A stretch of 44,228 bases of DNA from Escherichia phage BUCT825. The DNA lies in sequence record PV040721.1; one strand, written 5' to 3'. The notes beneath the pieces are model-generated. The model searched no databases. It was not told where the DNA came from and saw only the letters and a program-made list of their open reading frames with translations. A program made the translations under genes and the position numbers. Positions 10,571-32,146 of this stretch are shown here, in pieces; position 1 is the first letter of the stretch, and every line of letters starts with the position of its first letter.

Positions 10571-10599
10571 TTGCACACCCCAACATAATAGGTTACTAT
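10571..10599 (+). promoter_or_regulatory. Early-type promoter (-35 TTGCAC, 17-bp spacer, -10 TACTAT followed by TCAC)
   Basis: TTGCACACCCCAACATAATAGGTTACTATTCAC; near-identical copies at 12262-12290 (+) and 32118-32146 (-). Confidence 0.6.
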
Positions 10600-10633
10600 T
10601 CACTTATTGAAACTAGACAGAGGAGTTAGGGTT

Positions 10634-10819
10634 ATGTTTAAGAAGGGTCAGTTGGCTAAAACGAAACGCGGCGGACAGTACGTAATAGTTACCCAGGACG
10701 AAAATGAATACAGTATCGCTGTAGATGTATGGGGTCTTATACGAAAGAAACATGGTTACGCCTTCCGCGATAATTTAAAACTCATCGGCAACAATTTTAA
10801 ATTCAAAGGGGCGAAGTGA
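10634..10819 (+). CDS. hypothetical small protein (61 aa)
   Basis: ATG with SD GAGGAG; first gene after promoter. Confidence 0.5.
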   Translation: MFKKGQLAKTKRGGQYVIVTQDENEYSIAVDVWGLIRKKHGYAFRDNLKLIGNNFKFKGAK

Positions 10820-11064
10820 TGTTTAATCATATAATTAAATACGACTATCGCGATGGGGTTAAACTCGCCAAACATGATATAGAAACATGGTGCGGCTGTA
10901 AGCCTCAATTTAGTGATTGGTTGTTTCAGGACGCACAGCACGCCCTGTTAGTTATGGAGCAGGGAGGGAGAATTATGCCGTGCAAAAGTTGCCTGAAAAA
11001 TATAATCAAAACGGCATCGAATCATGATGCTCGTGCCGACGACTCTGAGGGAGGTTGCCGTTAA
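10819..11064 (+). CDS. hypothetical Cys-rich protein (81 aa)
   Basis: ATG overlaps upstream stop (TGATG); CGC...CKSC motifs. Confidence 0.5.
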   Translation: MFNHIIKYDYRDGVKLAKHDIETWCGCKPQFSDWLFQDAQHALLVMEQGGRIMPCKSCLKNIIKTASNHDARADDSEGGCR

Positions 11065-11255
11065 TGAAAATTCGTATAACTGATGTTGATTATGTTCTTC
11101 CGCCTGGTTATGGCGATCATTCTTTGCGCCACTTTGGTGTTTCAGTAGGTGATGAGTTTGAGGTTACGTCCTGTAACGACTACGGGTGCATAGTCAAACA
11201 TTGCGGGGAGGAACTGTACGTGCGTAGACGTGAGTATGTGATTATTGAGGACTAA
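11064..11255 (+). CDS. hypothetical protein (63 aa), paralog of next gene
   Basis: MKIRITD...FGVSVGD; start overlaps upstream stop. Confidence 0.5.
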   Translation: MKIRITDVDYVLPPGYGDHSLRHFGVSVGDEFEVTSCNDYGCIVKHCGEELYVRRREYVIIED

Positions 11256-11258
11256 GTT

Positions 11259-11414
11259 ATGAGAATCCGTATAACTGACCGCAGGCTTATAGATTTCGGT
11301 ATCTCGGTAGGTGATGTTTTTCTGGCGTTCAGCAGCAACCATTATGGTTTTATGATTGAGTACAAAGGGTCGTTATTGTTCGTGTATCGGGATGAATGCG
11401 AGGTTATGGTATGA
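11259..11414 (+). CDS. hypothetical protein (51 aa), paralog of previous gene
   Basis: Manual translation MRIRITDRRLIDFGISVGDVF... shares MxIRITD and FGxSVGD with upstream gene. Confidence 0.4.
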   Translation: MRIRITDRRLIDFGISVGDVFLAFSSNHYGFMIEYKGSLLFVYRDECEVMV

Positions 11415-11605
11415 GTCCGTATAACGAATTCCGCTTACGCCGTCTGATTGGCGGTCTGCGCGCCGCCGAGTTTGGTGTTGAATGCTGGGAAAAGGCGAAG
11501 TACACCCCGTTGAAGTCGTGGCATTTGGCTCATGCTAAGGAGGTAGCACAGTACCGTGAGTACAAGTTAAACAGTTTTCTTAAGCACCACGGGGTTGAGT
11601 TATGA
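11411..11605 (+). CDS. hypothetical protein (64 aa)
   Basis: ATGA overlap with upstream stop. Confidence 0.45.
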   Translation: MSPYNEFRLRRLIGGLRAAEFGVECWEKAKYTPLKSWHLAHAKEVAQYREYKLNSFLKHHGVEL

Positions 11606-11745
11606 GAGAGGCATTCGAACGGTGGGCCATCGTCGAGGGTCTGCCGGTTAACAAGGGTTCAAAGAAAGAGTACCTGAACGTTAAGACACGTCTCGCGTGG
11701 CGGGCGTGGAAAGCTGGTGTTCAAACTGCGATGAATACGAGGTGA
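11602..11745 (+). CDS. hypothetical protein (47 aa)
   Basis: Manual translation MREAFERWAIVEGLPVNKGSKKEYLNVKTRLAWRAWKAGVQTAMNTR; ATGA overlap. Confidence 0.35.
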   Translation: MREAFERWAIVEGLPVNKGSKKEYLNVKTRLAWRAWKAGVQTAMNTR

Positions 11746-11748
11746 GAT

Positions 11749-11949
11749 ATGGGTGAGTGGATTAAGTGTAGTGAGATGCTGCCGGGCAACGGTAGTGCAG
11801 ATAAAGAATTCCTGGTGTATGAAACGTTAAATAACGCAGTTCAACACGATTATTACATCGTTCCTGATGACGGGAGAAAGCCTTTCTGGAATCACTACGA
11901 TAAGTACGTGACTCACTGGATGCCGTTACCTGAGCCGCCGGAAGTGTGA
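11749..11949 (+). CDS. hypothetical protein (66 aa)
   Basis: ORF with ATG start; W- and P-rich small protein. Confidence 0.45.
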   Translation: MGEWIKCSEMLPGNGSADKEFLVYETLNNAVQHDYYIVPDDGRKPFWNHYDKYVTHWMPLPEPPEV

Positions 11950-11981
11950 TGTTCAATAGTTTGGGATTTTACTGAGTGACT

Positions 11982-12037
11982 TACGCTGCTACACAGCAGC
12001 GTACAACTTTAACTTAGTGTCGTCAAAAGGCGACACT
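11982..12037 (+). other. Two tandem stable hairpins in an intergenic gap (TACGCTGCT-ACAC-AGCAGCGTA and AGTGTCG-TCAAAAGG-CGACACT)
   Basis: Perfect 9-bp and 7-bp stems read directly; no strong U-tract. Confidence 0.4.
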
Positions 12038-12083
12038 TTCACCAAACGCAACAATCGAAGCGACTATTGCAGGAGACGCAACA

Positions 12084-12254
12084 ATGAAACTGAATGACAT
12101 CGTAACCTGGACCGGTAGAAACGGAGAAAAGCGATTCGGGCTTATTGTTGCGTCAGACGGCAACAAGTACCGTGTTATGCGCTGGTGCCAGTGGGCCAGA
12201 CGCCCGAGGTACTACTGGATTCGTGGCGAACGATTATCTTTAAAACACCAATAA
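12084..12254 (+). CDS. hypothetical protein (56 aa)
   Basis: Manual translation MKLNDIVTWTGRNGEKRFGLIVASDGNKYRVMRWCQWARRPRYYWIRGERLSLKHQ; SD AGGAG. Confidence 0.4.
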   Translation: MKLNDIVTWTGRNGEKRFGLIVASDGNKYRVMRWCQWARRPRYYWIRGERLSLKHQ

Positions 12255-12261
12255 AATTTAC

Positions 12262-12290
12262 TTGCACACTAAGATAGAATAGGCTACTAT
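12262..12290 (+). promoter_or_regulatory. Early-type promoter (-35 TTGCAC, 17-bp spacer, -10 TACTAT followed by TCA)
   Basis: TTGCACACTAAGATAGAATAGGCTACTATTCA. Confidence 0.6.
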
Positions 12291-12322
12291 TCATTTACAC
12301 AGACGAGACAGAGGAAAACGAA

Positions 12323-12508
12323 ATGTTAGAAGTTAAAGTTACAAAAAGAGACAGTGAACTGACTAAAGGCATCTTCAAAGTAGGAACCGTTATAGACCTG
12401 GATTTAGATGACATGGTTGTGTACCACGGTGGGATTGAGTGGAACGTGGCGCGGACCGACAACGGCTTCAAGTTACCAGGAAGTGAGACTCACTTTGCAG
12501 CAGTTTGA
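12323..12508 (+). CDS. hypothetical protein (61 aa)
   Basis: ATG with SD GAGGAAAACGAA context. Confidence 0.45.
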   Translation: MLEVKVTKRDSELTKGIFKVGTVIDLDLDDMVVYHGGIEWNVARTDNGFKLPGSETHFAAV

Positions 12509-12683
12509 AATATGGTTCCGGAGCCGGTTTGGGTTCGCCCCGGCCCGGAAAGACAATGGCTACGCTGAACCAGAGGTTCAGCGGATGTGGGTACGGTGGA
12601 AGGAGAAACAGCGTGAACACGAATGGCAATTTTACGGAGTCGGGTTTCCATGTATGTGCATTAAATGTGGGTTAAAGAAATGA
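12408..12683 (+). CDS. hypothetical Cys-containing protein; overlaps previous ORF by 100 nt, true start unresolved
   Basis: Alternative frame open across stop of 12323-12508; C-terminal CMCIKCG. Confidence 0.3.
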   Translation: MTWLCTTVGLSGTWRGPTTASSYQEVRLTLQQFEIWFRSRFGFAPARKDNGYAEPEVQRMWVRWKEKQREHEWQFYGVGFPCMCIKCGLKK

Positions 12684-12883
12684 CCAGCATCTTATTTATC
12701 TGGGTATTGTCGGCGGGCCAGATGCAACTAGCGGCATCGGAAACGTTTTACTCGATGGAGGCGTGCCAGTCAGCGGCACGCGCTGCAGAGAACGCGCACT
12801 TCTTGTTTCAGGGCGACAAGCCTAACGATTCAGAGGTACGCGCTATCTGCTCACCTAAGCGACTTGGTAAACAGGAGAAGTGA
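12680..12883 (+). CDS. small protein with predicted N-terminal signal peptide (67 aa)
   Basis: MTSILFIWVLSAGQMQLAAS hydrophobic leader; ATGA overlap. Confidence 0.45.
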   Translation: MTSILFIWVLSAGQMQLAASETFYSMEACQSAARAAENAHFLFQGDKPNDSEVRAICSPKRLGKQEK

Positions 12884-12885
12884 TT

Positions 12886-13149
12886 ATGGTACAGAGATAT
12901 TTATTACAAGGCGGTTTAATAGGGCCGCACGACGATGGTGACTGGGTTGGTTACGAAGACTACGCGGAACTTGAGCGTAAGTTCAATGAACTCAGGACAT
13001 GGCGTACGCAGATGCTCAATGCCGCTTTCGACTTTTTAGCGTGGGCAGAAAAAGCGGAAGCCGAGTTACAGAAATACAAAGACCAGTTCCCTGATTACGT
13101 CGAGTGCGCGAACTGTGGGTCAGTTACACATGTGGAGGGGGTGGAGTGA
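12886..13149 (+). CDS. hypothetical protein (87 aa)
   Basis: ATG with SD AGGAG. Confidence 0.5.
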   Translation: MVQRYLLQGGLIGPHDDGDWVGYEDYAELERKFNELRTWRTQMLNAAFDFLAWAEKAEAELQKYKDQFPDYVECANCGSVTHVEGVE

Positions 13150-13151
13150 TT

Positions 13152-13367
13152 ATGGTTCGTAAATATGAAGCGCGAGGGACTGAATTAGGCGGGGACGCAT
13201 TCTACGAAGATTGGGTAGAGGTGGTTCGCTACGAAGATTACAAGGCGCTAAAGACCCATGCCGATGCTATGTGCGAGGCCATGTGTTTGTATGATTTGGG
13301 TGAACGTGTTAGTTTCGAGCCATACATAAATTATACTGAATGGCTGTTGAGTGAGGACGATGTATGA
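13152..13367 (+). CDS. hypothetical protein (71 aa)
   Basis: ATG with SD GGAGGGGG. Confidence 0.5.
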   Translation: MVRKYEARGTELGGDAFYEDWVEVVRYEDYKALKTHADAMCEAMCLYDLGERVSFEPYINYTEWLLSEDDV

Positions 13368-13657
13368 GCCTTGCAACTGACATCCTGAAACGCAGCGGCC
13401 TTGCGCCGCTGTCACCGAGAGCGAACACCAGAATACACAAGCGCCGCCGTAATGCGCTGTACCCGGAGATTCAGGACAGACGCAAAGCTGTCCGCGCCTG
13501 TGGATTCCAGAACGGGAAGGCCGTAAATCTCGGTGAGTTTAAAACACAGGAACGCGCAGCAATCGCTAACCGGTTATTTAATTACTGGAAATCGCTGGGG
13601 TACGATGATATTCCGACGAAACCGCAGAGACGACAATACATCTGGAGACACAAATGA
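13364..13657 (+). CDS. small basic protein with AP2-like DNA-binding signature (97 aa)
   Basis: NGKAVNLGEFKTQERAAIANRLF resembles the AP2/HNH-associated DNA-binding motif. Confidence 0.45.
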   Translation: MSLATDILKRSGLAPLSPRANTRIHKRRRNALYPEIQDRRKAVRACGFQNGKAVNLGEFKTQERAAIANRLFNYWKSLGYDDIPTKPQRRQYIWRHK

Positions 13658-14094
13658 CGACTATCGCGTTCGACGGAAAGACAATGGCCTGTGACACACG
13701 TGTTGTGTGCGGGGATAACTACTACAACACAGATACTAAGATATACGAAAACGATACTTATGTTATCGGGGTAGCGGGTGACGCTGGAGTTGGTACTATG
13801 CTTATCGACTGCCCGTATATCCTCCAGGCCAGACATTATGATTTTGATTTCGAGGCCCTAGTGTATGAGAAAGACGCGGAAAAGGTGTATAAAGTCGCGT
13901 TTTATAAATCATGGGATTGTGCACTTAGTTCAGTTATTCCGGTTGCCGATGCGTACGCTGCCGTTGGGTCCGGTTCCCCTTATGCACTGGCGGCTATGGA
14001 ATGTGGGTATTCGGCGCATGGCGGTGTAGCCGTTGCATCGAAGTTTGACACTAACACCGGCGGCAAGATTATTACCAAACAACTATTAGGATAA
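13654..14094 (+). CDS. HslV/proteasome-beta-like Ntn-hydrolase family protein (146 aa)
   Basis: N-terminus MTTIAFDG (Thr directly after Met, as in HslV MTTIV); GVAGDAG and VGSGSPYALAAM resemble HslV GFAGG and IGSGGPYAQAA; alignment done by eye. Confidence 0.5.
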   Translation: MTTIAFDGKTMACDTRVVCGDNYYNTDTKIYENDTYVIGVAGDAGVGTMLIDCPYILQARHYDFDFEALVYEKDAEKVYKVAFYKSWDCALSSVIPVADAYAAVGSGSPYALAAMECGYSAHGGVAVASKFDTNTGGKIITKQLLG

Positions 14095-14108
14095 TTCCTA
14101 ACCGTGCT

Positions 14109-14148
14109 ATCCTCCAGTTACTGCATACTTAACACGCACCTGGAGGAT
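14109..14148 (+). promoter_or_regulatory. RNA hairpin sequestering the holin Shine-Dalgarno (ATCCTCCAG ... CTGGAGGAT)
   Basis: 9-bp perfect inverted repeat; 3' arm contains the GGAGGA SD sitting 6 nt before the TTG start. Confidence 0.5.
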
Positions 14149-14153
14149 TCATC

Positions 14154-14462
14154 TTGGATAAATTTACTGAAACAGTGACGGGGTGGCTTCTCGCTGCCGC
14201 ACTGGTCGGTGGATTGGTCGGACTAAGACAACATAAAAAGTCTATATCCGGGCCGATTGACGGACTGGTATTTCTCCTCACCGGCTTCGCGTGTGCCATT
14301 TTCGGTGCACCTCTTGCTGCTCAATGGTTCGGTATTACCGGTGAGCGCGAGATAGCTGGCCTCGGATTCATCATTGCCATTCTCTGGATGCCTATCTATT
14401 CCCGCCTTTCTGGCATCGTATCGGGCGGCGATATTGCCCACCCAGGAGGACCGCATGACTGA
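14154..14462 (+). CDS. holin (102 aa, about 3 predicted TM segments), TTG start
   Basis: Hydrophobic segments LLAAALVGGLVGL, LVFLLTGFACAIFGAPLAA, LGFIIAILWMPIY; no in-frame ATG before the first TM; strong SD. Confidence 0.6.
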   Translation: MDKFTETVTGWLLAAALVGGLVGLRQHKKSISGPIDGLVFLLTGFACAIFGAPLAAQWFGITGEREIAGLGFIIAILWMPIYSRLSGIVSGGDIAHPGGPHD

Positions 14463-14727
14463 GCTATTCTGGTTTGTCGTAATGCTGGCAATGGGCGCTT
14501 CGTCCCTGTTCAACGTGTATAATGAACGCGTGGACGACGGGATATTCGGTCGGGTGCTCTATATCCTGTCCGCTATTGTCTGCGCCGCCGGATGTATTCA
14601 CCTGTTACAGGGCGGCATGTCACCTACGCTGCCCGAGACATTAATCACATTAGTTGCGCTGCGCCAGATTCGTCAGGCGTGGCTGTCGTACGGAGGGCAT
14701 AAGCGTGTCTCGAAACATTTCAGATAA
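14456..14727 (+). CDS. second small membrane protein (about 90 aa, 2 TM): holin/antiholin-like
   Basis: ATG at 14456 with SD AGGAGG, overlapping holin stop; TM segments FWFVVMLAMGASSLF and LYILSAIVCAAGCIHLL. Confidence 0.5.
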
Positions 14728-15238
14728 TGGACTTACCGCAGATAAGCTGCGCGAGGTTTTACACTACGACCCCGATACCGGAGTTTTTACATGGAAAGCT
14801 ACACGTGTGCACAATGCTCGGGCGGGAAGTGAGGCTGGCGCCAACCATTGTGCAGGCTATCGCTCCATAGCCTTCGGTGGGAAGCGGTACTTGGCGCATC
14901 GTCTCGCTTGGCTATACATGACAGGGGAATGGCCCAACTCCCTAATAGACCACATAAACGGCGATGGTCGTGATAATAGATTCTGTAATTTACGTGAAGC
15001 CAACAAATCCGAAAACGGATGCAACAAAGGGCCAAGAAAGGACAGCAAATCCGGTATTAAGAACGTTATGTGGCAGAAGCAACAAGGAGGATGGTACGTT
15101 CAATTAAAAATACATAAGATTAAGTATTTTTACGGATACTTTGCGGACCTAGAACTAGCCGCGCTAGTTGCCGAAGAAGCTAGAGAGAAGATACACGGGG
15201 TTTTCGCGAACCATAAATTACGGGAAGGTGCTTTATGA
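14654..15238 (+). CDS. HNH homing endonuclease with AP2-like domain (likely start GTG 14705)
   Basis: HRLAWLYMTGEWPNSLIDHINGDGRDNRFCNLREANKSEN (HNH); conserved N-terminal LTADKLREVLHYDPDTGVFTW; stop overlaps endolysin ATG (ATGA). Confidence 0.8.
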   Translation: MRCARFVRRGCRTEGISVSRNISDNGLTADKLREVLHYDPDTGVFTWKATRVHNARAGSEAGANHCAGYRSIAFGGKRYLAHRLAWLYMTGEWPNSLIDHINGDGRDNRFCNLREANKSENGCNKGPRKDSKSGIKNVMWQKQQGGWYVQLKIHKIKYFYGYFADLELAALVAEEAREKIHGVFANHKLREGAL

Positions 15239-15717
15239 GAAACATTAGCAACAATGGCATCAAATTCACCGCAGCGTTTGAGGGGTTCCGCGGAACTGCG
15301 TATCGTGCTACGCCAAATGAGAAGTACCTGACTATTGGGTACGGTCATTATGGGCCAGACGTAACGCCAGGCAAGACCATCACCCCGGGACAAGGCCTCC
15401 TGTTACTGAATCGTGATATGGCTAAGGCCGTAGCTGCGGTTGACGCAGCAGCGCACCATTCACTGACGCAGGCGCAGTTTGATGCTGTTTGCGACCTGGT
15501 CTATAACGCGGGCGCTGGCGTGATTGCTGCTACTACGGGCACGGGTAAGGCGCTGCGTTCTGGTGATATCACGACGCTGCGGGCTAAGCTGGCGCTGTTC
15601 ATCAACCAGAATGGTAAACCGTTACTTGGTCTGCGTCGCCGTACTGCGGGTCGTCTGGCGTTGTTCGACGGTAAACAGTGGCAGGAGGCGGAGGCTATCG
15701 GGAGGGCTGTTAAATGA
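15235..15717 (+). CDS. endolysin, GH24 (T4/lambda-type lysozyme), 160 aa
   Basis: FEGFRGTAYRATPNEKYLTIGYGH catalytic region resembling T4 lysozyme E...D...TIGIGH. Confidence 0.85.
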   Translation: MRNISNNGIKFTAAFEGFRGTAYRATPNEKYLTIGYGHYGPDVTPGKTITPGQGLLLLNRDMAKAVAAVDAAAHHSLTQAQFDAVCDLVYNAGAGVIAATTGTGKALRSGDITTLRAKLALFINQNGKPLLGLRRRTAGRLALFDGKQWQEAEAIGRAVK

Positions 15718-15843
15718 TGGACGAATACGAAGGCGTTTAGTAAACTTACATCACGCTGCTTGTGCTTGCATACTAAGCCCTGGTAAACCTGAAGCAGCAG
15801 CCCAGGCGGTGGAGACTGCGTAGGGTTCAGGGGCTTATGCCCG

Positions 15844-15874
15844 AAACCCGGACCGCGAATCCGGGTTTTATTTT
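15844..15874 (+). terminator. Intrinsic terminator (AAACCCGGA-CCGCGAA-TCCGGGTTT followed by TATTTT)
   Basis: Perfect stem plus U-rich tail downstream of endolysin. Confidence 0.7.
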
Positions 15875-15947
15875 ACCAATTGACACCTAAGACTAATCAG
15901 ACGATACTTAAATCACCTCCTGTTCCATCCCTCTGCTCTCCAGTTTT

Positions 15948-15979
15948 ATCCCGGCCCTGACCCAGCCGGGATTTTTTTT
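15948..15979 (+). terminator. Second intrinsic terminator (ATCCCGGC-CCTGACCCA-GCCGGGAT followed by TTTTTTT)
   Basis: 8-bp stem followed by T8 run. Confidence 0.75.
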
Positions 15980-16001
15980 ATCTGTTTTCTGTAATGACTA
16001 G

Positions 16002-16030
16002 TTGACTATTATCCTCGACCCTATTATATT
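16002..16030 (+). promoter_or_regulatory. sigma70-like promoter (-35 TTGACT, 17-bp spacer, -10 TATATT)
   Basis: TTGACTATTATCCTCGACCCTATTATATT upstream of the 16065 gene block. Confidence 0.55.
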
Positions 16031-16064
16031 TACTTCATCGACAACGAGAACGGAGTAGAGAGAA

Positions 16065-16262
16065 ATGGGCAACGTATCGACGATAGAAATAACCGAAGAA
16101 CTCGAAGTTAAATGTATCGCATCAGTTATAGGGAATGGTTCGGTGGAAAAACTACAGATGAGGGCTGCTGCGGGCTACATACGCAGGGCTAATAGCGCGC
16201 AGACTGATGTTTTACGTAAACGTTACCTCGTGAAAGCGTTAGAAATACTGGAGAATAACTAA
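16065..16262 (+). CDS. hypothetical protein (65 aa)
   Basis: ATG with SD GGAG. Confidence 0.5.
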   Translation: MGNVSTIEITEELEVKCIASVIGNGSVEKLQMRAAAGYIRRANSAQTDVLRKRYLVKALEILENN

Positions 16263-16411
16263 TGAAAATTACAGATATCGAAGCATTCAAAGACGCACAA
16301 CTGATGGCACGCATCGCCGTTAGCAACCTGAGCAACAGCATCCCAGCGGCTGCATTCTGGTTCGCCGCGATGCAGACACTGAAAGCAGCTTATGCAGGAG
16401 AGAAGAAATGA
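16262..16411 (+). CDS. hypothetical protein (49 aa)
   Basis: Manual translation MKITDIEAFKDAQLMARIAVSNLSNSIPAAAFWFAAMQTLKAAYAGEKK; start overlaps upstream stop. Confidence 0.4.
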   Translation: MKITDIEAFKDAQLMARIAVSNLSNSIPAAAFWFAAMQTLKAAYAGEKK

Positions 16412-16617
16412 TCGACGTTATCGTTGGTTGCATCTATAAGAGTAATTACTCGTGGGGTGATGTAGGTGAAGTTAGTTTCATTGTAACTGCGGTTGGGTTG
16501 GACCACGTACTTATCGCCGACTACCCATTGATGAAATTCAATGAATCCTATTCAGAATATTGTGTTGGTAGAAAGGAGTTCGAGGCTAAATTTAAGTTTG
16601 CAGGAGAGAAGAAATGA
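16408..16617 (+). CDS. hypothetical protein (69 aa)
   Basis: ATGA overlap; C-terminus FAGEKK encoded by repeated junction. Confidence 0.5.
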   Translation: MIDVIVGCIYKSNYSWGDVGEVSFIVTAVGLDHVLIADYPLMKFNESYSEYCVGRKEFEAKFKFAGEKK

Positions 16618-16811
16618 AAGTTAAAGCCGCTAAAATTCTCTGGTTAGCCGCCCTTGACTATGTGACAGAGGGTAAAGTGTACGATGTGTACAACCCGACA
16701 GCTACTGGTTTCGGTTATATAGACTCCGACGACGACTGCTATATTTTCATAGACTTTGGTAACGATGAAGGTGATGGCTTCCACGGCGTTAAATGGGAGA
16801 TTGTAGAATGA
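16614..16811 (+). CDS. hypothetical acidic protein (65 aa)
   Basis: ATGA overlap both ends. Confidence 0.5.
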   Translation: MKVKAAKILWLAALDYVTEGKVYDVYNPTATGFGYIDSDDDCYIFIDFGNDEGDGFHGVKWEIVE

Positions 16812-16966
16812 GCGAACAAGGTCAAGTAAGCCAACCATTACGAGTAGGCCGTAAAGTCAGTCACACCTCGTTCCCGACACGAGAGGAGCTTATGAAACGT
16901 AACAGTTTCCCGGGGCCGGACAAGAACAAGTATCTAAATCGCATGTGGGGAGAGCGTAAAGAATGA
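16808..16966 (+). CDS. hypothetical protein (52 aa)
   Basis: Manual translation MSEQGQVSQPLRVGRKVSHTSFPTREELMKRNSFPGPDKNKYLNRMWGERKE; ATGA overlaps. Confidence 0.35.
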   Translation: MSEQGQVSQPLRVGRKVSHTSFPTREELMKRNSFPGPDKNKYLNRMWGERKE

Positions 16967-17974: not shown

Positions 17975-18039
17975 CCATTTAGACGCGTAGGGCGCGTCTG
18001 GTGCGCTCTGATGGTCAGACGCATATGCAAGGGGATTCT

Positions 18040-22978: not shown

Positions 22979-22994
22979 AACTATTCGAATAGTT
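22979..22994. promoter_or_regulatory. Perfect 16-bp palindrome AACTATTCGAATAGTT (candidate operator) overlapping a -35 hexamer
   Basis: Self-complementary sequence read directly; half-site ACTATTC recurs in several promoters. Confidence 0.5.
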
Positions 22995-23021
22995 GACTTT
23001 TCACTTAAAATGTGCTAAGCT
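22993..23021 (+). promoter_or_regulatory. candidate promoter (-35 TTGACT, 17-bp spacer, -10 TAAGCT)
   Basis: Hexamers and spacing read directly; weak -10. Confidence 0.35.
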
Positions 23022-23201
23022 CCACCTGAGCTTGTGAAGTATGAACAAGCGACCGCGGCGCGGGCAGGTAACGGAGCGGGGCGTTAGCCCTGAGTGTAGT
23101 TACGCTGACGCGTTCGGAAGGGCCATACTCTATTGCTTGTGTAAAAAGTAACTGGTTTACTGAGATTACGCCGTTTCTATGTTTAAATGATAAGGACTAG
23201 C

Positions 23202-23226
23202 GCCCCGCTTTATGGCGGGGCTTTAC
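23202..23226 (+). terminator. Intrinsic terminator/attenuator (GCCCCGC-TTTATG-GCGGGGC followed by TTTACTTAT) immediately upstream of the Rz RBS
   Basis: 7-bp GC stem plus U-rich tail. Confidence 0.55.
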
Positions 23227-23245
23227 TTATCGAGAAAGGAGAAAC

Positions 23246-24525: not shown

Positions 24526-24527
24526 TA

Positions 24528-25577: not shown

Positions 25578-25593
25578 GGTTAAGCTATAATCG

Positions 25594-25620
25594 AGAGGGA
25601 CTTCGGTCCCTCTTTTCATT
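25594..25620 (+). terminator. Intrinsic terminator (AGAGGGAC-TTCG-GTCCCTCT followed by TTTCATTT)
   Basis: 8-bp stem, UUCG loop, U-rich tail. Confidence 0.7.
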
Positions 25621-25638
25621 TACTAAGAGGATTCCTAA

Positions 25639-25980
25639 ATGGCAGACGTATTGAAGCGACGCATCACCGGCGTCTCCGCTGACACCCCGGGTGCTAAGAT
25701 TGACATGGCGACTATTTCTCCTGCGTCTTTCTCTTCCGCGCTGGCGGCTACTACCGCAGTGACCACAGGTGAAACTATGACGCTGACCGTAACGGTAGCC
25801 GGCGGTCTGGAGCCATATTATTACCAGTGGTATAAGAATAACAACGCTATCGCCGGGGCAAACGCTGCTTCCTATGCGAAGGCGTCCACTACTACCGCAG
25901 ATTCAGGCACGTATAAAGTGGTTGTTCACGATGTGTATGGTAATATTATCTCCAGCAGCACTGTAGCAACTGTGTCTTAA
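25639..25980 (+). CDS. Ig-like (I-set-like) domain protein, 113 aa
   Basis: EPYYYQWYKNNNAI...DSGTYKVVVHDVYG Ig-like signature. Confidence 0.6.
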   Translation: MADVLKRRITGVSADTPGAKIDMATISPASFSSALAATTAVTTGETMTLTVTVAGGLEPYYYQWYKNNNAIAGANAASYAKASTTTADSGTYKVVVHDVYGNIISSSTVATVS

Positions 25981-26016
25981 TACAACGGCCCTTCGGGGCC
26001 GTAATAGGGAAAGGTC

Positions 26017-26196
26017 ATGGCAGATAATTATGTAATCCGCGAAAAATACACCCACGTTGACATTGTTGACGGCCAGGTGATGCCTGTTCGCGGTGCTGTA
26101 GAAGCGGATGAACTGGTTGAGACTCAACCAGACAACGAAGAAGCGCACAACAACGGTGGTGGTACTAAGCGTCGTCGCCGTAAGTCGGAGGAATAA
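26017..26196 (+). CDS. small protein with basic C-terminus (59 aa)
   Basis: Manual translation MADNYVIREKYTHVDIVDGQVMPVRGAVEADELVETQPDNEEAHNNGGGTKRRRRKSEE; SD GGGAAAGG. Confidence 0.4.
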   Translation: MADNYVIREKYTHVDIVDGQVMPVRGAVEADELVETQPDNEEAHNNGGGTKRRRRKSEE

Positions 26197-26199
26197 TTC

Positions 26200-26712
26200 A
26201 TGCCGCTAATCGTGGAAACTGGGGCAATCGTCCCGAATGCCGACAGTTACATTAGTCTGGCTGACGCCCGCGCGTTAGCGGCTAATTACGGTCTTGAGTT
26301 ACCCGCCGATGACATTGATGCTGAAGTTGCCTTACGCAACGGCGCTACCTATGTCGGGCTTGCAGAGCCGCAGATGTGTGGTCGTCGAGTATCTGCCGAA
26401 CAGTCTCTTGCGTACCCGCGCACCGGTGTTACGTTGAATGGTTTCCCTGTAGCGAACAATGTCATCCCGAAGCAGGTTATTCTTGCGCAGGTAATCGCCG
26501 CGGTCACCTATGGTGCAGGTACTGAAGTACGGGCTAACTCAGATGGTCGCGCCGTGCAGACGGAGCGTGTTGAGGGTGCAGTGACAGTGACGTACTTCAA
26601 CAACGGCAACAGTGGAGCTACGACCACGATTACCGCAGCGGACGACGCCTTACGCCCGTTACTGTGTGGCGGTCTTAACAATGGCTTCTCGTTTAACGTG
26701 TACCGGGGTTAA
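26200..26712 (+). CDS. head-tail connector/adaptor protein (gp6-like), 170 aa
   Basis: N-terminal SYISLADARALAANYGLELPADD resembles head-tail connector family signature; strong SD GGAGGAA. Confidence 0.5.
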   Translation: MPLIVETGAIVPNADSYISLADARALAANYGLELPADDIDAEVALRNGATYVGLAEPQMCGRRVSAEQSLAYPRTGVTLNGFPVANNVIPKQVILAQVIAAVTYGAGTEVRANSDGRAVQTERVEGAVTVTYFNNGNSGATTTITAADDALRPLLCGGLNNGFSFNVYRG

Positions 26713-26714
26713 AA

Positions 26715-27329
26715 ATGGCGAAGACTAAAACAGAGATGTTTACCCTTATCGGTGCAAATCTTCCCGATAACACCACCGGACTTATTACCCCCGCCGCATT
26801 GCGCGAGGTAATGACTCAGATGGCTGACTCGCCTATTTACGCAACTCCTGGAGTGAAAGAGGTTGAAGTTCTTCGCGCCGCGTCTACTGTAACCCAAGCT
26901 CCTACCGCGGTAAATACAGCACTGCAGTTAACTTTCGGCTCTGCTCAGGGTAGCGCATCCGACCCTGTAATGATTAATGCTGCGGGGCTGGTTACGTTCA
27001 ACACCGCTTGGAACTATGCCGTTCGCATCAAGTTACAGGCCGGGCGCACTGGTGCTAGTGGGACATCCATCCTGCTATCACGTATTTTAGTAAACGGTGC
27101 TCAGTACGGCTCGCCCGCCGCCACGAAACTAGTCAGCGCCGACACAACAATTCCTATTGAATCACGCGTCGTTATTAACCCGACCGCTGGCCAGACGTTT
27201 GCCGTTCAGATTATGCGGGATAGCGCCGGAAGCAACTTCGGCGGCGTGTACCCGCAAGCGGCTACCGTAACTGCATGGGGTACAGCACCGTCAGCATTAC
27301 TGGTTATCTCGAGACTGGAGGCCGCCTGA
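26715..27329 (+). CDS. virion structural protein (204 aa)
   Basis: Position in head-tail joining region; overlapping start/stop. Confidence 0.45.
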   Translation: MAKTKTEMFTLIGANLPDNTTGLITPAALREVMTQMADSPIYATPGVKEVEVLRAASTVTQAPTAVNTALQLTFGSAQGSASDPVMINAAGLVTFNTAWNYAVRIKLQAGRTGASGTSILLSRILVNGAQYGSPAATKLVSADTTIPIESRVVINPTAGQTFAVQIMRDSAGSNFGGVYPQAATVTAWGTAPSALLVISRLEAA

Positions 27330-27688
27330 TGAGCACCGCTTTCAGTAAGCGTATGCAAGGCGTGGGTACGCGCCTGCTAACTAAATTCGGTAGCACGGTA
27401 TCTCTGATTCGCGCTGGCTCAAAAGTGTGGGATGAAGTTCTCGGTGAATATGTCTGGTCTGACGATGAAGTGTTGCCGTTGAAGGCCGTTCCAGTTCCGG
27501 TAAACGCAGGACTGGTGAACGGTACGACTATTCAGGCAGGCGACATGATTGTTAAAGCGGATTGCAGCGTCGTTCCGAAGATGGAAGACAAGGTGCAATT
27601 CGGCGGCGAGCAATGGTCTGTCGTAGCCATTGAGAAGAAGATGGTTAACGATGATGTCGTGGCCTACTTTATCCAGGTGAGAAAATGA
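27329..27688 (+). CDS. head-tail joining protein (about 120 aa)
   Basis: ATGA overlap at 27329; position. Confidence 0.45.
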   Translation: MSTAFSKRMQGVGTRLLTKFGSTVSLIRAGSKVWDEVLGEYVWSDDEVLPLKAVPVPVNAGLVNGTTIQAGDMIVKADCSVVPKMEDKVQFGGEQWSVVAIEKKMVNDDVVAYFIQVRK

Positions 27689-28080
27689 GTTTCGCGCTCG
27701 ATGTCTCTAAGTTCGTGGAAAAGGCGAAGAAGAACCCCGAGAAGGTGATGCGTCAGGTGTCTATCAAGTTGTTTTCCGCTATTATAAAGGCGAGTCCGGT
27801 AGATACTGGCCGCTTTCGTATGAACTGGATGGCGTCTGGCGGTATTCCTGCTTCTGGAGTTACAGATGCTACCGATAAATCAGGAAACACGGCAACCGGA
27901 AACGCCACGAGTTTCGTACTGAAAGCCGCCGACTGGCGCGAGTTCACGCTGACAAATAATCTGCCGTATGCACAACGGCTGGAGTATGGCTGGTCGCAAC
28001 AGGCACCCGCCGGGGTGGTCAGGACTAACGTGTCCCGCTTCCAGCAACTCATTAACGAAGAAGCCAACAAGGTGAAATGA
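27685..28080 (+). CDS. tail completion/neck protein (HK97 gp10-like), 131 aa
   Basis: PVDTGRFRMNW motif. Confidence 0.5.
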   Translation: MSFALDVSKFVEKAKKNPEKVMRQVSIKLFSAIIKASPVDTGRFRMNWMASGGIPASGVTDATDKSGNTATGNATSFVLKAADWREFTLTNNLPYAQRLEYGWSQQAPAGVVRTNVSRFQQLINEEANKVK

Positions 28081-28493
28081 TGGGCTACTTTGAGGACTTA
28101 ACAAAAGCGTTTGATGTGCCGCTGGTAGCCTTCGGAACCGCCAACGGCATCAAAGTCGCGCTTGAAAATATCGGCGCACCGACGTCAACCGATACACCAT
28201 ATCTGGCAAGTTACATGTTGCTGGCGGATACGGAACAGGCGGATTTGTTCTTCACGGAACAACGCGCTGGCGTCTATCAGGTAGATATTAACTACGCATC
28301 GGTGAAAGGTAGCGCGCCAATCAATAAAATGGCAGACTTACTTAACACGGCGTTTAAAGCAGGTAAGTCATTTTCACGTAACGACATCTGCGCCGAGGTT
28401 CAATCGGTTAGCCTGGGGCCGCTGATTGTAGAAAACGGATGGGCCAAACGACCATTGTCAATTAACTTTATTGCATTCACCAAGAGGCTGTGA
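28077..28493 (+). CDS. tail terminator-like protein (138 aa)
   Basis: Position immediately upstream of major tail gene. Confidence 0.45.
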   Translation: MMGYFEDLTKAFDVPLVAFGTANGIKVALENIGAPTSTDTPYLASYMLLADTEQADLFFTEQRAGVYQVDINYASVKGSAPINKMADLLNTAFKAGKSFSRNDICAEVQSVSLGPLIVENGWAKRPLSINFIAFTKRL

Positions 28494-29662
28494 ATATGGC
28501 TACAACTCCTTTTAAGGGCGCGAATACTGCGCAATTCTATGTGGCAGAAACTATCCCCGGCGTAACACCAAGTAACCCGGTCTGGTCGCCATTGCGCAAT
28601 ACGGGCGGCGTTCCCGCCATTACCCGCGACACGCTGACCTCCAACGAACTGGACGGCAGCCGTGAAACTACGTCCATCCGCACCGGTAACAAACAGGTTA
28701 GCGGGGAATACGCCATCGAGCTTAGCTCGAAAAGCCAGGACGACTGGTTAGCTGGGGCTTTAGGTTCTACGTGGCAATCCGGTGTTTCTCTGTCCGGTCT
28801 GTCTATTACCGTCGCCCCGGCGGGAAAGACGTTCACCCGTGCTGATGGCAGCTTTATTACCGACGGCGTTGAAGTGGGTGACCTGATTGCGTTTACCGAC
28901 TTAACGGGTGATAACGCCAAACCGTTTATTGTTACTGCAGTAACGGCTACGGTTGTTACTGGTGCGGGCATCCAACACACCCTGACCACCGAGACAAAAA
29001 CTAGTAAGGCTAAAACTGGCGACACGTTGGAAACCGGTAACGCGTGTAAGACGTTCTCTATCCTTACCTGGTACAAAGGCCAGTGCGGCGGTACTGACGC
29101 GTACACGTTAACCAAAGGCGTGGAAGTTTCTGGTTTTACCATCGAACAGGCTGTTAACGCGATGGTAACTGGCAGCTTCCCATTCATCGGTCGCAGTCAG
29201 GAGATTCTCACTACGCCGCCGACCGGTTCCAACTTCTCATCTGTTACTTTTGGTGATGAGCCGTTCTCTTCGGTTGACGTTTCCGTGTTCGACGGCTCTA
29301 CGCCGTTGCGTTGCGACAGTCTGACTATCACCAACGATAACAGCGCGTCCGCGCAGTTCGAACTTGGTAACACTAACGTAGCGTTTGTGGAGCGTAGCCG
29401 TGCAGCTAACACCTTCTCCATCTCCGGTAAGCTGTATGACATGGCGATGATTCAGAAGTTTATCAACGAGCAGCAGGTAGAGATTAACTCCATTCTGGCG
29501 GGGGTAAACGGGGCTATGTCTTTCAGTTTGAAACGTGCAGAGCTTACGGCGGTCACACCTGAGATTGGTGGCCCTGAGTCAATCACTCAGTCTATTGAAG
29601 GCCAGGCCACCGGCAACCAGTACCAGTCGTCTATCGTAATTCAACGTATTAGTTACGCGTAA
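28490..29662 (+). CDS. major tail (tube) protein, 390 aa
   Basis: Large Thr/Ser/Gly-rich protein followed by strong terminator; position before chaperone/TMP block. Confidence 0.55.
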   Translation: MNMATTPFKGANTAQFYVAETIPGVTPSNPVWSPLRNTGGVPAITRDTLTSNELDGSRETTSIRTGNKQVSGEYAIELSSKSQDDWLAGALGSTWQSGVSLSGLSITVAPAGKTFTRADGSFITDGVEVGDLIAFTDLTGDNAKPFIVTAVTATVVTGAGIQHTLTTETKTSKAKTGDTLETGNACKTFSILTWYKGQCGGTDAYTLTKGVEVSGFTIEQAVNAMVTGSFPFIGRSQEILTTPPTGSNFSSVTFGDEPFSSVDVSVFDGSTPLRCDSLTITNDNSASAQFELGNTNVAFVERSRAANTFSISGKLYDMAMIQKFINEQQVEINSILAGVNGAMSFSLKRAELTAVTPEIGGPESITQSIEGQATGNQYQSSIVIQRISYA

Positions 29663-29666
29663 AACT

Positions 29667-29690
29667 AAGGCCCCGAAAGGGGCCTTTTCC
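29667..29690. terminator. Bidirectional intrinsic terminator (AAGGCCCC-GAAA-GGGGCCTT) between convergent tail-tube and kinase genes
   Basis: 8-bp stem flanked by A-run upstream and T-run downstream; near-identical copy at 42199-42222. Confidence 0.7.
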
Positions 29691-30245
29691 CTACAAACCT
29701 AATTTTAAAGCAATGTCTATAACGTTCGATTTAACGTCACCTGGTATGATGTAGGTGTCGTAATCTTTTACACCATCAACGCCATACAGATAGCCACGGC
29801 TGTCCCCTTCAAACGTATAGCCGTCTCTGTGCAAGCGAACAATTCTTACGTCATGCCCAGCGGCGACGATAGGGACCACTTCACTGGCGAATCCACCGTC
29901 GGACACTACAAAAACTTCGTCGCCGTCAGGCAAGTTTTCAGCGAGATATTTACCGAAATAATCGCTGCCGAGGGCCGGTTTAATGAATTGTTCAGAGATA
30001 GCAATCATGAACCGACGGCGCGACAACCCATTAAGGAAACCTTCTGGCTTTTCTTTCCTGGCCCGGTCGTCGTAGCCGTCGAGAAACTCGTGGTAAGCAT
30101 CCGGGCCTAACGCAGCCATAGCGATATTGAACATCGGATTCTTGAAACTGGTAGTTCCTTTCGCAAAGCCCATTTCTACCAGTGCCATAGCAAGCGTGTC
30201 TTTCCCGCAACCCGCAGGGCCATTAAGAATAATTACCTTAGCCAT
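29691..30245 (-). CDS. P-loop nucleotide kinase, T4 Dnk-like (dNMP kinase family), 184 aa
   Basis: Walker A ILNGPAGCGKDT resembles T4 Dnk LSGVKRSGKDT; start overlaps HAD stop by 1 nt. Confidence 0.7.
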   Translation of the reverse strand: MAKVIILNGPAGCGKDTLAMALVEMGFAKGTTSFKNPMFNIAMAALGPDAYHEFLDGYDDRARKEKPEGFLNGLSRRRFMIAISEQFIKPALGSDYFGKYLAENLPDGDEVFVVSDGGFASEVVPIVAAGHDVRIVRLHRDGYTFEGDSRGYLYGVDGVKDYDTYIIPGDVKSNVIDIALKLGL

Positions 30246-30730
30246 TATTTATCGCTCCCATGTGGTTTTAAGTGTGTAGAGTTCCCGTTACAGTCGTATT
30301 CAGTAACCGCGTGAGTGGTTATGCCGAGTTCGCGGAAATGCTTTATTACCGCTGGCGAGTCGTCGAATGCACACAAGATTCTTTCCAGCCCAATAGCACG
30401 CAACACCTCTTCTTTAATTACGATGTCTTTTCTGTTGTCGTGTTTGCTGCGCATGATTAGCTGATAAAATTCGACGCGGTGGCGCTGCAACCACATTCTG
30501 GTTTCTTTTTCTGCATCATCACTACGGCCCGTTAAAATGATAACGGCATAGCGACGATTGAGGGCGTTACACAGTTCTATGTTATCTCTAATTGGTTCAT
30601 CATCTTTGCACGCCATGTTAAAGGGCTTCCACGCCCATGTTTCGTTGTAGTTATCTTTCGGCAGCAGGTGCAAACGATGTGTCCCATCCGCCAATGTCCC
30701 GTCTAAATCGAAAATTACAATATCTTTCAT
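30245..30730 (-). CDS. HAD-family phosphatase resembling the T4 Pnkp 3'-phosphatase domain, 161 aa
   Basis: Motif I IFDLDGTLA; ILTGR; KDIVIKEEV; FDDSP pattern parallels T4 Pnkp IFDVDGTLA / VVVSGR / KDDVVKEEI / IDDR. Confidence 0.7.
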   Translation of the reverse strand: MKDIVIFDLDGTLADGTHRLHLLPKDNYNETWAWKPFNMACKDDEPIRDNIELCNALNRRYAVIILTGRSDDAEKETRMWLQRHRVEFYQLIMRSKHDNRKDIVIKEEVLRAIGLERILCAFDDSPAVIKHFRELGITTHAVTEYDCNGNSTHLKPHGSDK

Positions 30731-31857
30731 CCCAGCATCTCCGGTGAAATAGTTAAACGTGCGACCTCGCCAAATTCGGCGCTATAAGTAATTACATTTG
30801 CACTACGGCCCGACATCCAACCTCCGCGGGAGGCGTAGGCGTCTTTAGCCGCTAAGGTGCGGTGTTGCTCAACAATCATGTTACGGCTTTCTACAATCTT
30901 CTGGTGGTGCAGATGGCCTACGTGGGCGTAGCTGTAAACACTCTCGCCGAACGCTTTACGGAACTTGGCAATCATAACAGGTTCAATAGCGTCGAATCGT
31001 GCTTTATGCCCGTGATGGAAGAACAGCGTCGTTTTGCCGTGTTGCACCATCTTGTAAACATCCGGTGACGTATCGACGAACACACGCGGCTCATTGTCAT
31101 ACAGCGTACTGAACATCTCAGCCAACCAAATCATGCCACTTTCGTCGTGATTCCCTTGCACGATAAGCAAGCGAACATTTTTATGCTTAACCAGCGCCAT
31201 ATCGACAACACGGCGGACCATGCGAATCATGTAGCGGACAAGTTTCTGGTAACGGGTGTCGGCGTCAAGGGCGTGACCGCTTGCAGGTGTAACGGCAACC
31301 AGACTATCGAAGTGCGCGAAGTCGCCCAGCAGGTTAATAACCCCAGTCCCCGCATCCGGTGCTTTCTGGAATGCCGCATCGAACCAACGGGAGAACAGGT
31401 CTTCTGCAATCTTCATATCCCAGTCGTCGCCACTCTCGTCGGCCCAGGCCAGCATACCGAGATGGAAATCAGACACAGTGTAAAGGTTGAGTAGCTTGTC
31501 GTCCCGTTTGGCGCGAACGGCTTTAACAGGAGCAACGGGGGTAATCTCCGACTTCATGCCCTCGATTATGGCTTTCATCAACTCGACCTGACGTTCGGCA
31601 TCGGTGTCGGTCTTAACCCATTGCAGTTTAGTGTTGCCTAACTCATCAACCAGAGACGATGTACCCTTAATCTTGTAGCCGTCCGGCACAAGGTGGCTAA
31701 CGTCACGCCCGTGGCCTACGCCTTTCTTCGCTAGTTTCGCTTTACGGATACGAATAACGCGGTCTGAGATGCCGTATTTACGAGCAATGTCGATATTCTT
31801 CATCCCAGCGTTCAATTCTTCCTGTAACTGTTCGTCGGTTATTTTCTTCTGGGCCAT
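30727..31857 (-). CDS. Calcineurin-like metallophosphoesterase with N-terminal sigma-region-4-like HTH (about 376 aa; longer ORF to 31962 less likely)
   Basis: Motifs DFH, GDFAHFD, VQGNHDE, FHHGH, HVGHLHH; N-terminal NIDIARKYGISDRVIRIRKAKL; ATG 31857 with SD GAGGAA. Confidence 0.7.
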   Translation of the reverse strand: MAQKKITDEQLQEELNAGMKNIDIARKYGISDRVIRIRKAKLAKKGVGHGRDVSHLVPDGYKIKGTSSLVDELGNTKLQWVKTDTDAERQVELMKAIIEGMKSEITPVAPVKAVRAKRDDKLLNLYTVSDFHLGMLAWADESGDDWDMKIAEDLFSRWFDAAFQKAPDAGTGVINLLGDFAHFDSLVAVTPASGHALDADTRYQKLVRYMIRMVRRVVDMALVKHKNVRLLIVQGNHDESGMIWLAEMFSTLYDNEPRVFVDTSPDVYKMVQHGKTTLFFHHGHKARFDAIEPVMIAKFRKAFGESVYSYAHVGHLHHQKIVESRNMIVEQHRTLAAKDAYASRGGWMSGRSANVITYSAEFGEVARLTISPEMLG

Positions 31858-31895
31858 GCCTATTTCCTCGTGTTTAGGATTTGTCTTATAGTAGC

Positions 31896-32087
31896 CTACT
31901 TCTCTTTCACGTTCGAGTTGCAAGCCCAGATTAAAATAAATACCCACGGCAGCAGAACCCAACCAAGAAACAGATTAGCCATGAATATCGCTAACTTCGC
32001 TTTATGGTTACGGAAGTACGCAACCAGGAAAGGCGCGAAATAAGCGAGCAGTGCAAACAGAATTAAGGAAACTGGTAAACTGGACAT
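31896..32087 (-). CDS. small 2-TM membrane protein (about 63 aa), first gene of antisense cassette
   Basis: Hydrophobic segments LPVSLILFALLAYFAPFLVAYF and LFLGWVLLPWVFILIWA; SD GAAGGGG. Confidence 0.5.
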   Translation of the reverse strand: MSSLPVSLILFALLAYFAPFLVAYFRNHKAKLAIFMANLFLGWVLLPWVFILIWACNSNVKEK

Positions 32088-32117
32088 TTTAAACCCCTTC
32101 ATTGTTGGTGTAAGTGA

Positions 32118-32146
32118 ATAGTACCCTATTATATTGGGGTACGCAA
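32118..32146 (-). promoter_or_regulatory. Early-type promoter on minus strand (-35 TTGCGT, 17-bp spacer, -10 TACTAT followed by TCAC) driving the antisense cassette
   Basis: Reverse complement TTGCGTACCCCAATATAATAGGGTACTATTCAC, nearly identical to the promoter at 10571-10599. Confidence 0.6.

Follow-up and report, generated by a model that had tools for sequence, protein, structure and literature searches.

A candidate Cro-like repressor/operator regulon linking early, replication and tail-module promoters in Escherichia phage BUCT825

Lambda Cro, a small early phage repressor, turns down the PL and PR promoters in lytic growth. In phage 434, the operators are 14 base pairs (bp) long, with the outer 5+5 positions contacted and conserved and the inner 4 not contacted (PMC1636474). 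Here we describe a candidate system of comparable architecture in Escherichia phage BUCT825 (sequence record PV040721.1), whose whole analysed stretch of 44,228 nucleotides (nt) we call the window and which megablast places in Kagunavirus (Guernseyvirinae). The elements of this system are a 14-bp dyad that recurs in promoters of early, replication and accessory genes, and a protein of 71 amino acids (aa) of the XRE helix-turn-helix (HTH) type that is the candidate dyad-binding regulator.

The closest parallel is the 434 system. Both systems include a 71-aa, all-helical XRE HTH protein (434 Cro/repressor being the best match of the window regulator in sequence and in fold), a 14-bp dyad with conserved outer 5+5 and variable inner 4 positions (as in OR1-3 and OL1-3), operators that overlap promoter cores, and two sites beside the regulator's own gene, between divergent promoters. 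They differ in the half-site, AATAG in the window and ACAAG in 434; in the arrangement of the sites, which in the window are single and spread over at least 7 promoters across 44 kb, whereas those of 434 form two triple-operator clusters; and in lifestyle, the window's phage group being virulent, without a CI partner, integrase or lysogeny switch. Dyad binding is a prediction in the window. The locus is not a lambdoid immunity region: no integrase or CI is annotated in the relatives, and there are two sites rather than tandem triple operators.

Compared with lambda Cro, the regulator is proposed here to play the same part, that of an early small repressor that, as the lytic cycle advances, reduces the transcription of early and replication genes; unlike the lambda regulon, that of the window would include an opposite-strand accessory cassette within the tail module, and the late genes have sigma-70 type promoters of their own. 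The controller (C) proteins C.AhdI and C.BclI are also close fold matches and, likewise, are small XRE dimers that act on dyads in or beside their own promoter. However, there are no restriction-modification genes here, and the C-boxes lie 5' of or over the -35 and activate first, whereas the window dyads cover the spacer and the -10.

The 14-bp dyad and its promoters

The original prediction described three copies of the element TTGCRY-N17-TACTATTCA as a second promoter family that places a minus-strand cassette, embedded in the late region, under the same control as the early genes. The copies are where they were said to be, on the strands given (10571 and 12262, plus; 32146, minus), and copies 1 and 3 are indeed near-identical over ~35 bp, with 31/35 positions in agreement. 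The window contains exactly 3 matches to the element even when 2 mismatches are allowed, against 0.27 expected, and none of 100 dinucleotide shuffles reaches 3. All three copies lie in non-coding gaps, with TACTAT 35-38 nt 5' of an ATG with a good Shine-Dalgarno sequence in front (10634, 12323 and 32087), and all three display sigma-70 geometry: TTGCAC or TTGCGT, 17 nt, TACTAT and then a ~28-nt leader with a ribosome-binding site (RBS). Each scores 8/12 to the sigma-70 consensus and therefore falls below the 9/12 cut-off of a generic scan. The sigma-70 frame is credible, and the three sites, hereafter class II promoters P_E, P_F and P_G, are plausible sigma-70 promoters, their activity being predicted only. 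An alternative -10, (C/T)ATAAT, situated just 5' in this class, has no usable -35 16-18 bp upstream. A fourth exact TACTATTCA is found at 7139.

The conserved core of the three copies is a perfect 14-bp palindrome, AATAG-N4-CTATT. Exact copies occur 6 times in the window (583, 3992, 7088, 10587, 12278 and 32117), against 0.037 expected from base composition; with one mismatch allowed, there are 10 sites (the 6 exact ones and 4 more) against 0.92 expected, a number that 0/100 shuffles reach. This is the commonest exact palindrome with 5-bp arms in the window. Promoter-like non-coding gaps hold 9 of the 10 sites; the remaining, one-mismatch dyad (38318) is within a tail gene and is the one match predicted by chance. 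The notion that the second family constitutes a regulon apart is not supported by this count: the core is also present in the TTGAC[AG]-N17-TATAGT replication promoters (class I: P_A, P_B and P_C) and at the regulator gene (dyad D), linking at least 7 promoters rather than 2 (Table 1).

The two classes carry the same dyad in different registers, and its orientation with respect to transcription is reversed between them. Relative to the start, predicted at 571, 3980 and 7076 on the minus strand for A, B and C, the dyad spans ~-25..-12 in A, B and C and ~-19..-6 in D, E, F and G. Counted from the -35, there are three registers, namely, -35 N4 dyad (A, B, C), -35 N10 dyad (E, F, G) and -35 N7 dyad (the cassette promoter of Jerseyvirus wksl3). 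Because its symmetry is kept in all three, the dyad can be regarded as an element independent of the hexamers. With its left arm in spacer positions that are unread by sigma-70, its three registers, its rank among palindromes across loci and its intact arms around a variable centre, it appears to be more than promoter sequence. A symmetric, bidirectional -10, as found in divergent bacterial promoters, is rejected on geometry: the halves are 9 bp apart centre to centre, which would place the starts ~32 bp apart, and a decent opposite-strand hexamer is present only at G.

Conservation was assessed in loci fetched via the regulator protein or the chaperone protein, hence not selected for the motif, and orthologous sites were compared in BLAST-anchored alignments. 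The dyad is the commonest exact palindrome, alone or tied, in 37/37 Kagunavirus and 11/11 Jerseyvirus loci, at orthologous positions. The arms are intact in nearly all orthologues of the exact sites (Table 1; the P_G sample consists of Kagunavirus loci retrieved via the chaperone protein alone), while the central 4 bp come in 4-8 variants per site in A, B, C, E and F. Dyad D retains an identical imperfect form, AATAT..CTATT, in 37/37 Kagunavirus loci. When the cassette promoter is compared across genera, only TTGC and the two arms are conserved. In phiEap-2, AATAN-N4-NTATT is found at the orthologous promoters, with 8 matches against ~0.6 expected. A scan of IMG/VR with GTGAATAGN4CTATTAT yielded several matches each on Kagunavirus-size contigs (not examined further) and single matches elsewhere, which we take as chance.

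Lineages with diverged Cro-like proteins (36-44% identical) have dyads of their own within the same promoter architecture. These are AATAC-N4-GTATT in locus L054 (2 exact against 0.007 expected; L054:2396,5428,9514), TATTA-N6-TAATA in Cornellvirus, cassette promoter included (3 against 0.03; L004:7674,14869,37446), and GTATA-N6-TATAC in loci L080 and L081 (3 against 0.04; L080:7876,7927,8663), where two copies lie upstream of the regulator and a further one lies in a TTGACT-N4-dyad frame. Mismatch-tolerant enumeration of palindromes was swamped by GC-rich coding palindromes and gave no yield for the distant lineages, for which exact counts and inspection of the promoter regions were used. The sister-lineage dyads suggest specificity variants of one regulator/operator pair.

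The remaining one-mismatch sites are less clear. At promoter H, the dyad ACTAGTTGACTATT is centred on the -35, and in Jerseyvirus the mismatch is in the other arm; this is possibly a weak site. The dyad upstream of the head-gene block is possibly a weak site or a chance match. As a separate observation, the last nine bases of sites C and D on the plus strand (7097-7105 and 7141-7149), beside the replication operon promoter, are CTATTCACA, which resembles a weak DnaA box.

Table 1. Location of the dyad-bearing promoters, the regulator gene, the cassette and the surrounding gene blocks in the window
Feature	Position	Strand	Description	Arms intact (Kagunavirus loci)
P_A (class I)	578..606	-	TTGACG 606-601, 17 nt, TATAGT 583-578; dyad 583-596; predicted to drive 544 downwards and, across the window ends, helicase/primase genes	29/32
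P_B (class I)	3987..4015	-	TTGACA 4015-4010, 17 nt, TATAGT 3992-3987; dyad 3992-4005; upstream of gene 3931-3305 for a Gp2.5-like single-stranded DNA-binding protein (SSB)	34/36
P_C (class I)	7083..7111	-	TTGACA 7111-7106, 17 nt, TATAGT 7088-7083; spacer dyad 7088-7101; head of leftward replication operon (7054 downwards)	37/37
Dyad D	7132..7145	+	AATATGGTACTATT; one mismatch; overlaps TACTAT 7139-7144 (fourth TACTATTCA); 31 nt 5' of regulator ATG	
Regulator gene	7176..7391	+	single gene; 71-aa XRE/HTH_3 protein, 434 Cro-like; candidate dyad-binding protein	
P_E (copy 1, class II)	10571..10602	+	-35 TTGCAC 10571-10576, -10 TACTAT 10594-10599; dyad AATAGGTTACTATT 10587-10600; predicted +1 A10606; predicted to drive small genes starting 10634	33/33
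P_F (copy 2, class II)	12262..12293	+	-35 TTGCAC 12262-12267, -10 TACTAT 12285-12290; dyad 12278-12291; predicted +1 A12297; predicted to drive 12323-12508 (Gp54 family) and the genes after it	29/32
P_G (copy 3, class II)	32115..32146	-	-35 TTGCGT 32146-32141, -10 TACTAT 32123-32118; dyad 32117-32130; predicted +1 ~32111; predicted to drive the cassette	16/16, and K1ind1
Promoter H	15997..16030	+	TTGACT 16002-16007, 17 nt, TATATT 16025-16030; directly 3' of a terminator	
One-mismatch dyad	22988..23001	+	AATAGTTGACTTTT; centred on -35 TTGACT of the promoter 5' of the head-gene block, after a terminator	
Cassette	29691..32087	-	four genes, opposite strand	
Cassette gene	32087-31896	-	Imm-like superinfection immunity protein (T4 Imm-like)	
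Cassette gene	31857-30727	-	metallophosphoesterase ("DNA repair exonuclease")	
Cassette gene	30730-30245	-	PNKP-type HAD phosphatase	
Cassette gene	30245-29691	-	P-loop kinase	
Hairpin	29667..29686		AAGGCCCCGAAAGGGGCCTT; where the cassette end meets the convergent major tail gene	
Tail-operon promoter	32153..32161	+	extended -10: TG 32153-54, TAGAAT 32156-61; predicted +1 G32168	
Replication genes	7054 down to 1, continuing 44157-42357	-		
Helicase-primase operon	10126-7409	-		
Small genes	from 10634 and 12323	+	followed by lysis genes and more small genes	
First gene after P_F	12323-12508	+	Pfam PF25180 "phage antiviral trigger protein Gp54", E 5e-26	
Terminase, head and tail genes	18001 up to 29662		terminase at 18001, then head and tail genes	
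Tail assembly chaperone and tail genes	32254-42194			

The Cro-like regulator and the proposed regulon

The regulator belongs to the HTH_3 family (E 2e-12), and its best solved relative is phage 434 Cro, likewise of 71 aa (residues 6-68 of 71 aligned, E 2e-6). The AF2 model, a single-sequence prediction, consists of five helices (pLDDT 82), with 2cro as the top match in the PDB (42% identity, TM 0.74/0.81). The protein is conserved in 485 phage records, with at least 95% identity within Kagunavirus, ~50% in Jerseyvirus and ~40% in other Guernseyvirinae. Dyads C and D, 44 bp apart, lie upstream of the regulator gene in a 120-bp divergent region; on the other side of this region is the head of the replication operon, a gene for a 75-aa protein with no assigned function.

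The reading that we favour, with a probability of about 0.55, is that the Cro-like protein and the dyad form a repressor/operator regulon that includes the cassette. Under this scenario, host RNA polymerase would fire all the dyad promoters on phage entry; as the Cro-like protein accumulates, its dimer would bind the dyads and occlude RNA polymerase by covering the spacer or the -10. The expression of the small host-takeover genes, the replication operons and the Imm/RNA-repair-like cassette would then fall together and, finally, the regulator would lower the expression of its own gene via the weaker site D. Activation in place of repression is unlikely, given the near-consensus hexamers of class I, set 17 bp apart, and the position of the dyads over the spacer or the -10. 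Most likely, this is control of an ordinary kind that is new for this phage group, with a regulon of at least 7 promoters.

The timing of cassette expression can be compared with a published transcriptome of the Kagunavirus phage K1B4 (PMC12645636). In that time course, the Imm gene peaks after 100 min, in a class shared with the helicase, methylase and DNA polymerase genes; the Cro-like gene is classed as "middle", and the HTH_17 gene is alone among the annotated genes in being "early" (PMC12645636). These data do not support the assignment of the cassette to the early genes, its first gene being placed in the latest-peaking class (PMC12645636). Of the predicted co-regulation, what stands is the cis element common to the cassette promoter and the promoters of non-structural genes; what lacks support is the "early" label. 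The K1B4 grouping agrees with joint control of the cassette and the dyad-bearing replication genes, but not with that label. The experiment is nevertheless too coarse to decide, because sampling extended to 120 min with a latent period of 30 min, and phage reads never exceeded 9% (PMC12645636). All the named "late" genes of K1B4 are on the minus strand, just downstream of late plus-strand operons, and antisense read-through could be the source of the label. The supplements of that transcriptome contain no gene-level expression values (PMC12645636).

Several points weigh against the repressor/operator reading. The arms are AT-rich and overlap -10-like hexamers, which explains part of their conservation. 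E and G share their 31/35 bp with non-functional spacer positions included, and this indicates recent copying rather than independent selection. The regulators of Kagunavirus and Jerseyvirus are only ~50% identical and their recognition helices differ (QGAINQ and QSLITH), yet the half-site is the same. The latest-peaking Imm and DNA polymerase genes of K1B4 are not predicted by a simple early shut-off (PMC12645636). Finally, the binding, starts and expression of the dyad promoters in BUCT825 are predicted from sequence.

Other readings of the repeat

Clearly less probable, but the best placed among the alternatives, is that the repeat is a portable module of promoter and 5' untranslated region, copied by recombination, in which the dyad is a by-product of AT-rich, -10-like sequence with no dedicated protein. 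Co-regulation would then amount to a set of similar constitutive sigma-70 promoters. The near-identity of E and G, spacer included, fits this possibility, and so do the L096 locus (1001-1203), which keeps the G promoter and has the next gene replaced immediately after it, the two extra copies of a 20-mer in the head region of phage fBC-Eco01 (PP1/PP2, PMC9825357 Table S2) and the overlap of the left arm with CATAAT/TAGAAT/TATAAT-like hexamers. Against it, TTGC and the two arms are the only parts that do not diverge across genera, and the arms are complementary in three registers with the central 4 bp free; other lineages keep the dyad symmetry with different half-sites, and a 434-Cro-like gene adjoins two of the copies. 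Accessory genes do seem to bring the promoter/operator module with them when they are inserted. Mobile regulatory cassettes of T4-type phages (PeSL), each a repeated early promoter plus a stem-loop flanking shuffled genes, were reportedly described by Arbiol and colleagues in 2010. The repeats described here resemble PeSL in that early-promoter modules border exchangeable accessory genes (the L096 joint and the extra copies in fBC-Eco01) but differs in that the module lacks a stem-loop, belongs to another phage family and carries a protein-type dyad in the repeat.

It is improbable that the dyad serves as operator for some other factor, be it the AlpA/MerR-like HTH_17 protein (9956-10126) or a host regulator conserved in Enterobacteriaceae. 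The early label of the HTH_17 gene in the K1B4 time course is compatible with such a role, and HTH_17 is 79-99% conserved between Kagunavirus and Jerseyvirus, which share the dyad, whereas the recognition helices of their Cro-like proteins differ. However, HTH_17 is absent from phiEap-2 and Cornellvirus, where dyads persist at the orthologous promoters; the 5-N4-5 geometry suits 434-type proteins; and the dyads flank the Cro-like gene, not the HTH_17 gene, whose promoter region has no dyad. We know of no host factor with an AATAG-N4-CTATT site. The HTH_17 gene, on the minus strand, heads the helicase-primase operon and has its own promoter, TTGATT-17-TATACT (10187-10159). Speculatively, its product is a candidate antiterminator for the terminator-punctuated late region.

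The narrower model of the original prediction, in which the TTGCRY-N17-TACTATTCA promoters of the small early genes and the cassette make up a regulon distinct from the TTGACA-N17-TATAGT promoters, appears to us no more credible than a different binding factor. The three copies do share the register, the TTGC -35 and a TCAC(T/A)T discriminator/start region, and the same register of the cassette promoter recurs in L101 and in phiEap-2-like phages; under this model, the difference between the classes could be one of promoter strength or of sensitivity to a host-takeover factor. Yet the conserved core is common to both classes, the Jerseyvirus cassette promoter is in the third register, and K1B4 groups the first cassette gene with the replication genes driven from class I promoters.

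Next to no weight attaches to the annotation of the repeats, derived with PHIRE for fBC-Eco01, as promoters of a phage-encoded RNA polymerase: seven 20-mers, TGAATAGTAnCCTATTATnT, with the consensus tgAATAGTa-ccTATTat-T, were listed under that label (PMC9825357), but no such polymerase gene is annotated in five related genomes (closest relatives and other genera), and every copy lies within a canonical -35/-10 frame. The repeat is thus already in the literature, misattributed to a phage RNA polymerase. The fBC-Eco01 20-mers include the counterparts of D, E, F and, by position, probably G, and seven PHIRE promoters were likewise reported for phage Golestan (PMC7203180); the two papers make no mention of the dyad, the sigma-70 frames or the Cro-like gene, and largely miss the class I sites. 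A search of the literature on promoters, Cro, repressor and transcriptome in Kagunavirus, Jerseyvirus and Guernseyvirinae found nothing beyond these two papers and the K1B4 study (PMC9825357, PMC7203180, PMC12645636).

The tail-module cassette, its junction and the wider genome

As originally described, the cassette sits within the structural module; it is inserted on the strand opposite to that of its neighbours, the major tail gene and the tail assembly chaperone gene. Its first gene starts at 32087, as was also stated, the mechanical open reading frame (ORF) beginning at an in-frame ATG at 32102. Opposite-strand inserts occupy the same slot in four Guernseyvirinae lineages (Kagunavirus, Jerseyvirus, Cornellvirus and phiEap-2), with different cargo in each. 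By its sequence and position, the hairpin at 29667-29686 is a putative bidirectional terminator that closes the cassette transcription unit.

The cassette and the chaperone gene are separated by two promoters set back to back, the second being TGnTAGAAT, nine bases past the cassette -35 and on the opposite strand. Kagunavirus, L101 and phiEap-2-like phages all keep this element, and its Jerseyvirus form is TGTTATTCT. The start predicted for it, G32168, opens a conserved two-hairpin leader with an outer stem (32168-32212; 16 pairs), in which 5/16 pairs show compensatory double changes among ten sequences drawn from five lineages; its G-U pairs can form on the plus strand alone. The leader has no match in Rfam and is followed by AACC repeats up to the RBS (to 32256); it is probably a 5' stabiliser or a regulatory leader. 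Another promoter-proximal 5' hairpin, the second of its kind, is found in the SSB mRNA, the predicted 5' leader of which (3931-3986, minus) begins near the hairpin CCGGGCAGCTCCCGG; this hairpin is conserved across Kagunavirus and Jerseyvirus loci, with a close variant in Cornellvirus VSiP and phiEap-2.

The centre of the dyad is at ~-44.5 from the predicted tail start (-42.5 in Jerseyvirus). A two-way switch, in which the dyad-bound protein shuts the cassette promoter and stimulates the tail promoter and the lineage-specific dyad/regulator pairs act as "immunity types", is conceivable but doubtful: the dyad centre is off the classical -41.5 and shifts by 2 bp in Jerseyvirus, which speaks against a dual role at the tail promoter. 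If real, such a switch would act in the manner of CI at OR2/PRM and couple the shut-off of the non-structural regulon to tail expression, and the lineage-specific pairs would let strictly virulent phages silence superinfecting relatives.

Gene order in the window was taken from the annotation of relatives together with Pfam and PHROG scans (Table 1). The early region is ~99% identical to those of Escherichia phages vB_VIPECOTH07 and XY1 (megablast), the large ORFs match DNA polymerase, helicase-primase and tail proteins, and an Rfam scan of the entire window gave no match. A hairpin, AAGGCCCC-N4-GGGGCCTT, is present in three copies (3266, 29667 and 42199). The copies at 29667 and 42199 lie where convergently transcribed blocks meet, and that at 3266 separates the SSB and DNA polymerase genes within the minus-strand replication operon; all three are likely terminators, bidirectional at both convergent junctions.

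Two further regions deserve mention. Between the divergent early units, 10127-10633 is a stretch of ~500 bp without genes that holds a strong hairpin (10468-10488), repeated TAAGATATA/AGATACTTA motifs and a 14-nt inverted repeat with its halves 197 nt apart; its Cornellvirus counterpart has G-rich iterons and two GTGAATAGTTAT repeats. This is possibly a replication origin or a regulatory region. At 22988-23245 on the plus strand, the promoter TTGACT-17-TAAGCT precedes a structured leader of ~200 nt (fold z -2.7) that closes with a GC hairpin and a short T tract (23202-23221), directly 5' of the head-gene block. The arrangement is reminiscent of lambda PR'/6S RNA/tR', where read-through requires an antiterminator.

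Phages of Kagunavirus and Jerseyvirus are widely isolated with therapy or food safety in view and have been put forward as small chassis for synthetic biology, yet almost nothing has been described of how their transcription is programmed. A single 14-bp operator and a single Cro-like protein, which probably join the takeover genes and the replication operons to the tail-module cassette, provide a testable wiring diagram for these phages and correct the published annotation of the repeats as "phage RNA polymerase promoters". The promoter/operator module would also be the handle through which accessory genes become plugged into the structural region and, if the protein is a repressor, the phages would supply a ready-made orthogonal regulator/operator pair with natural variants in the sister lineages.

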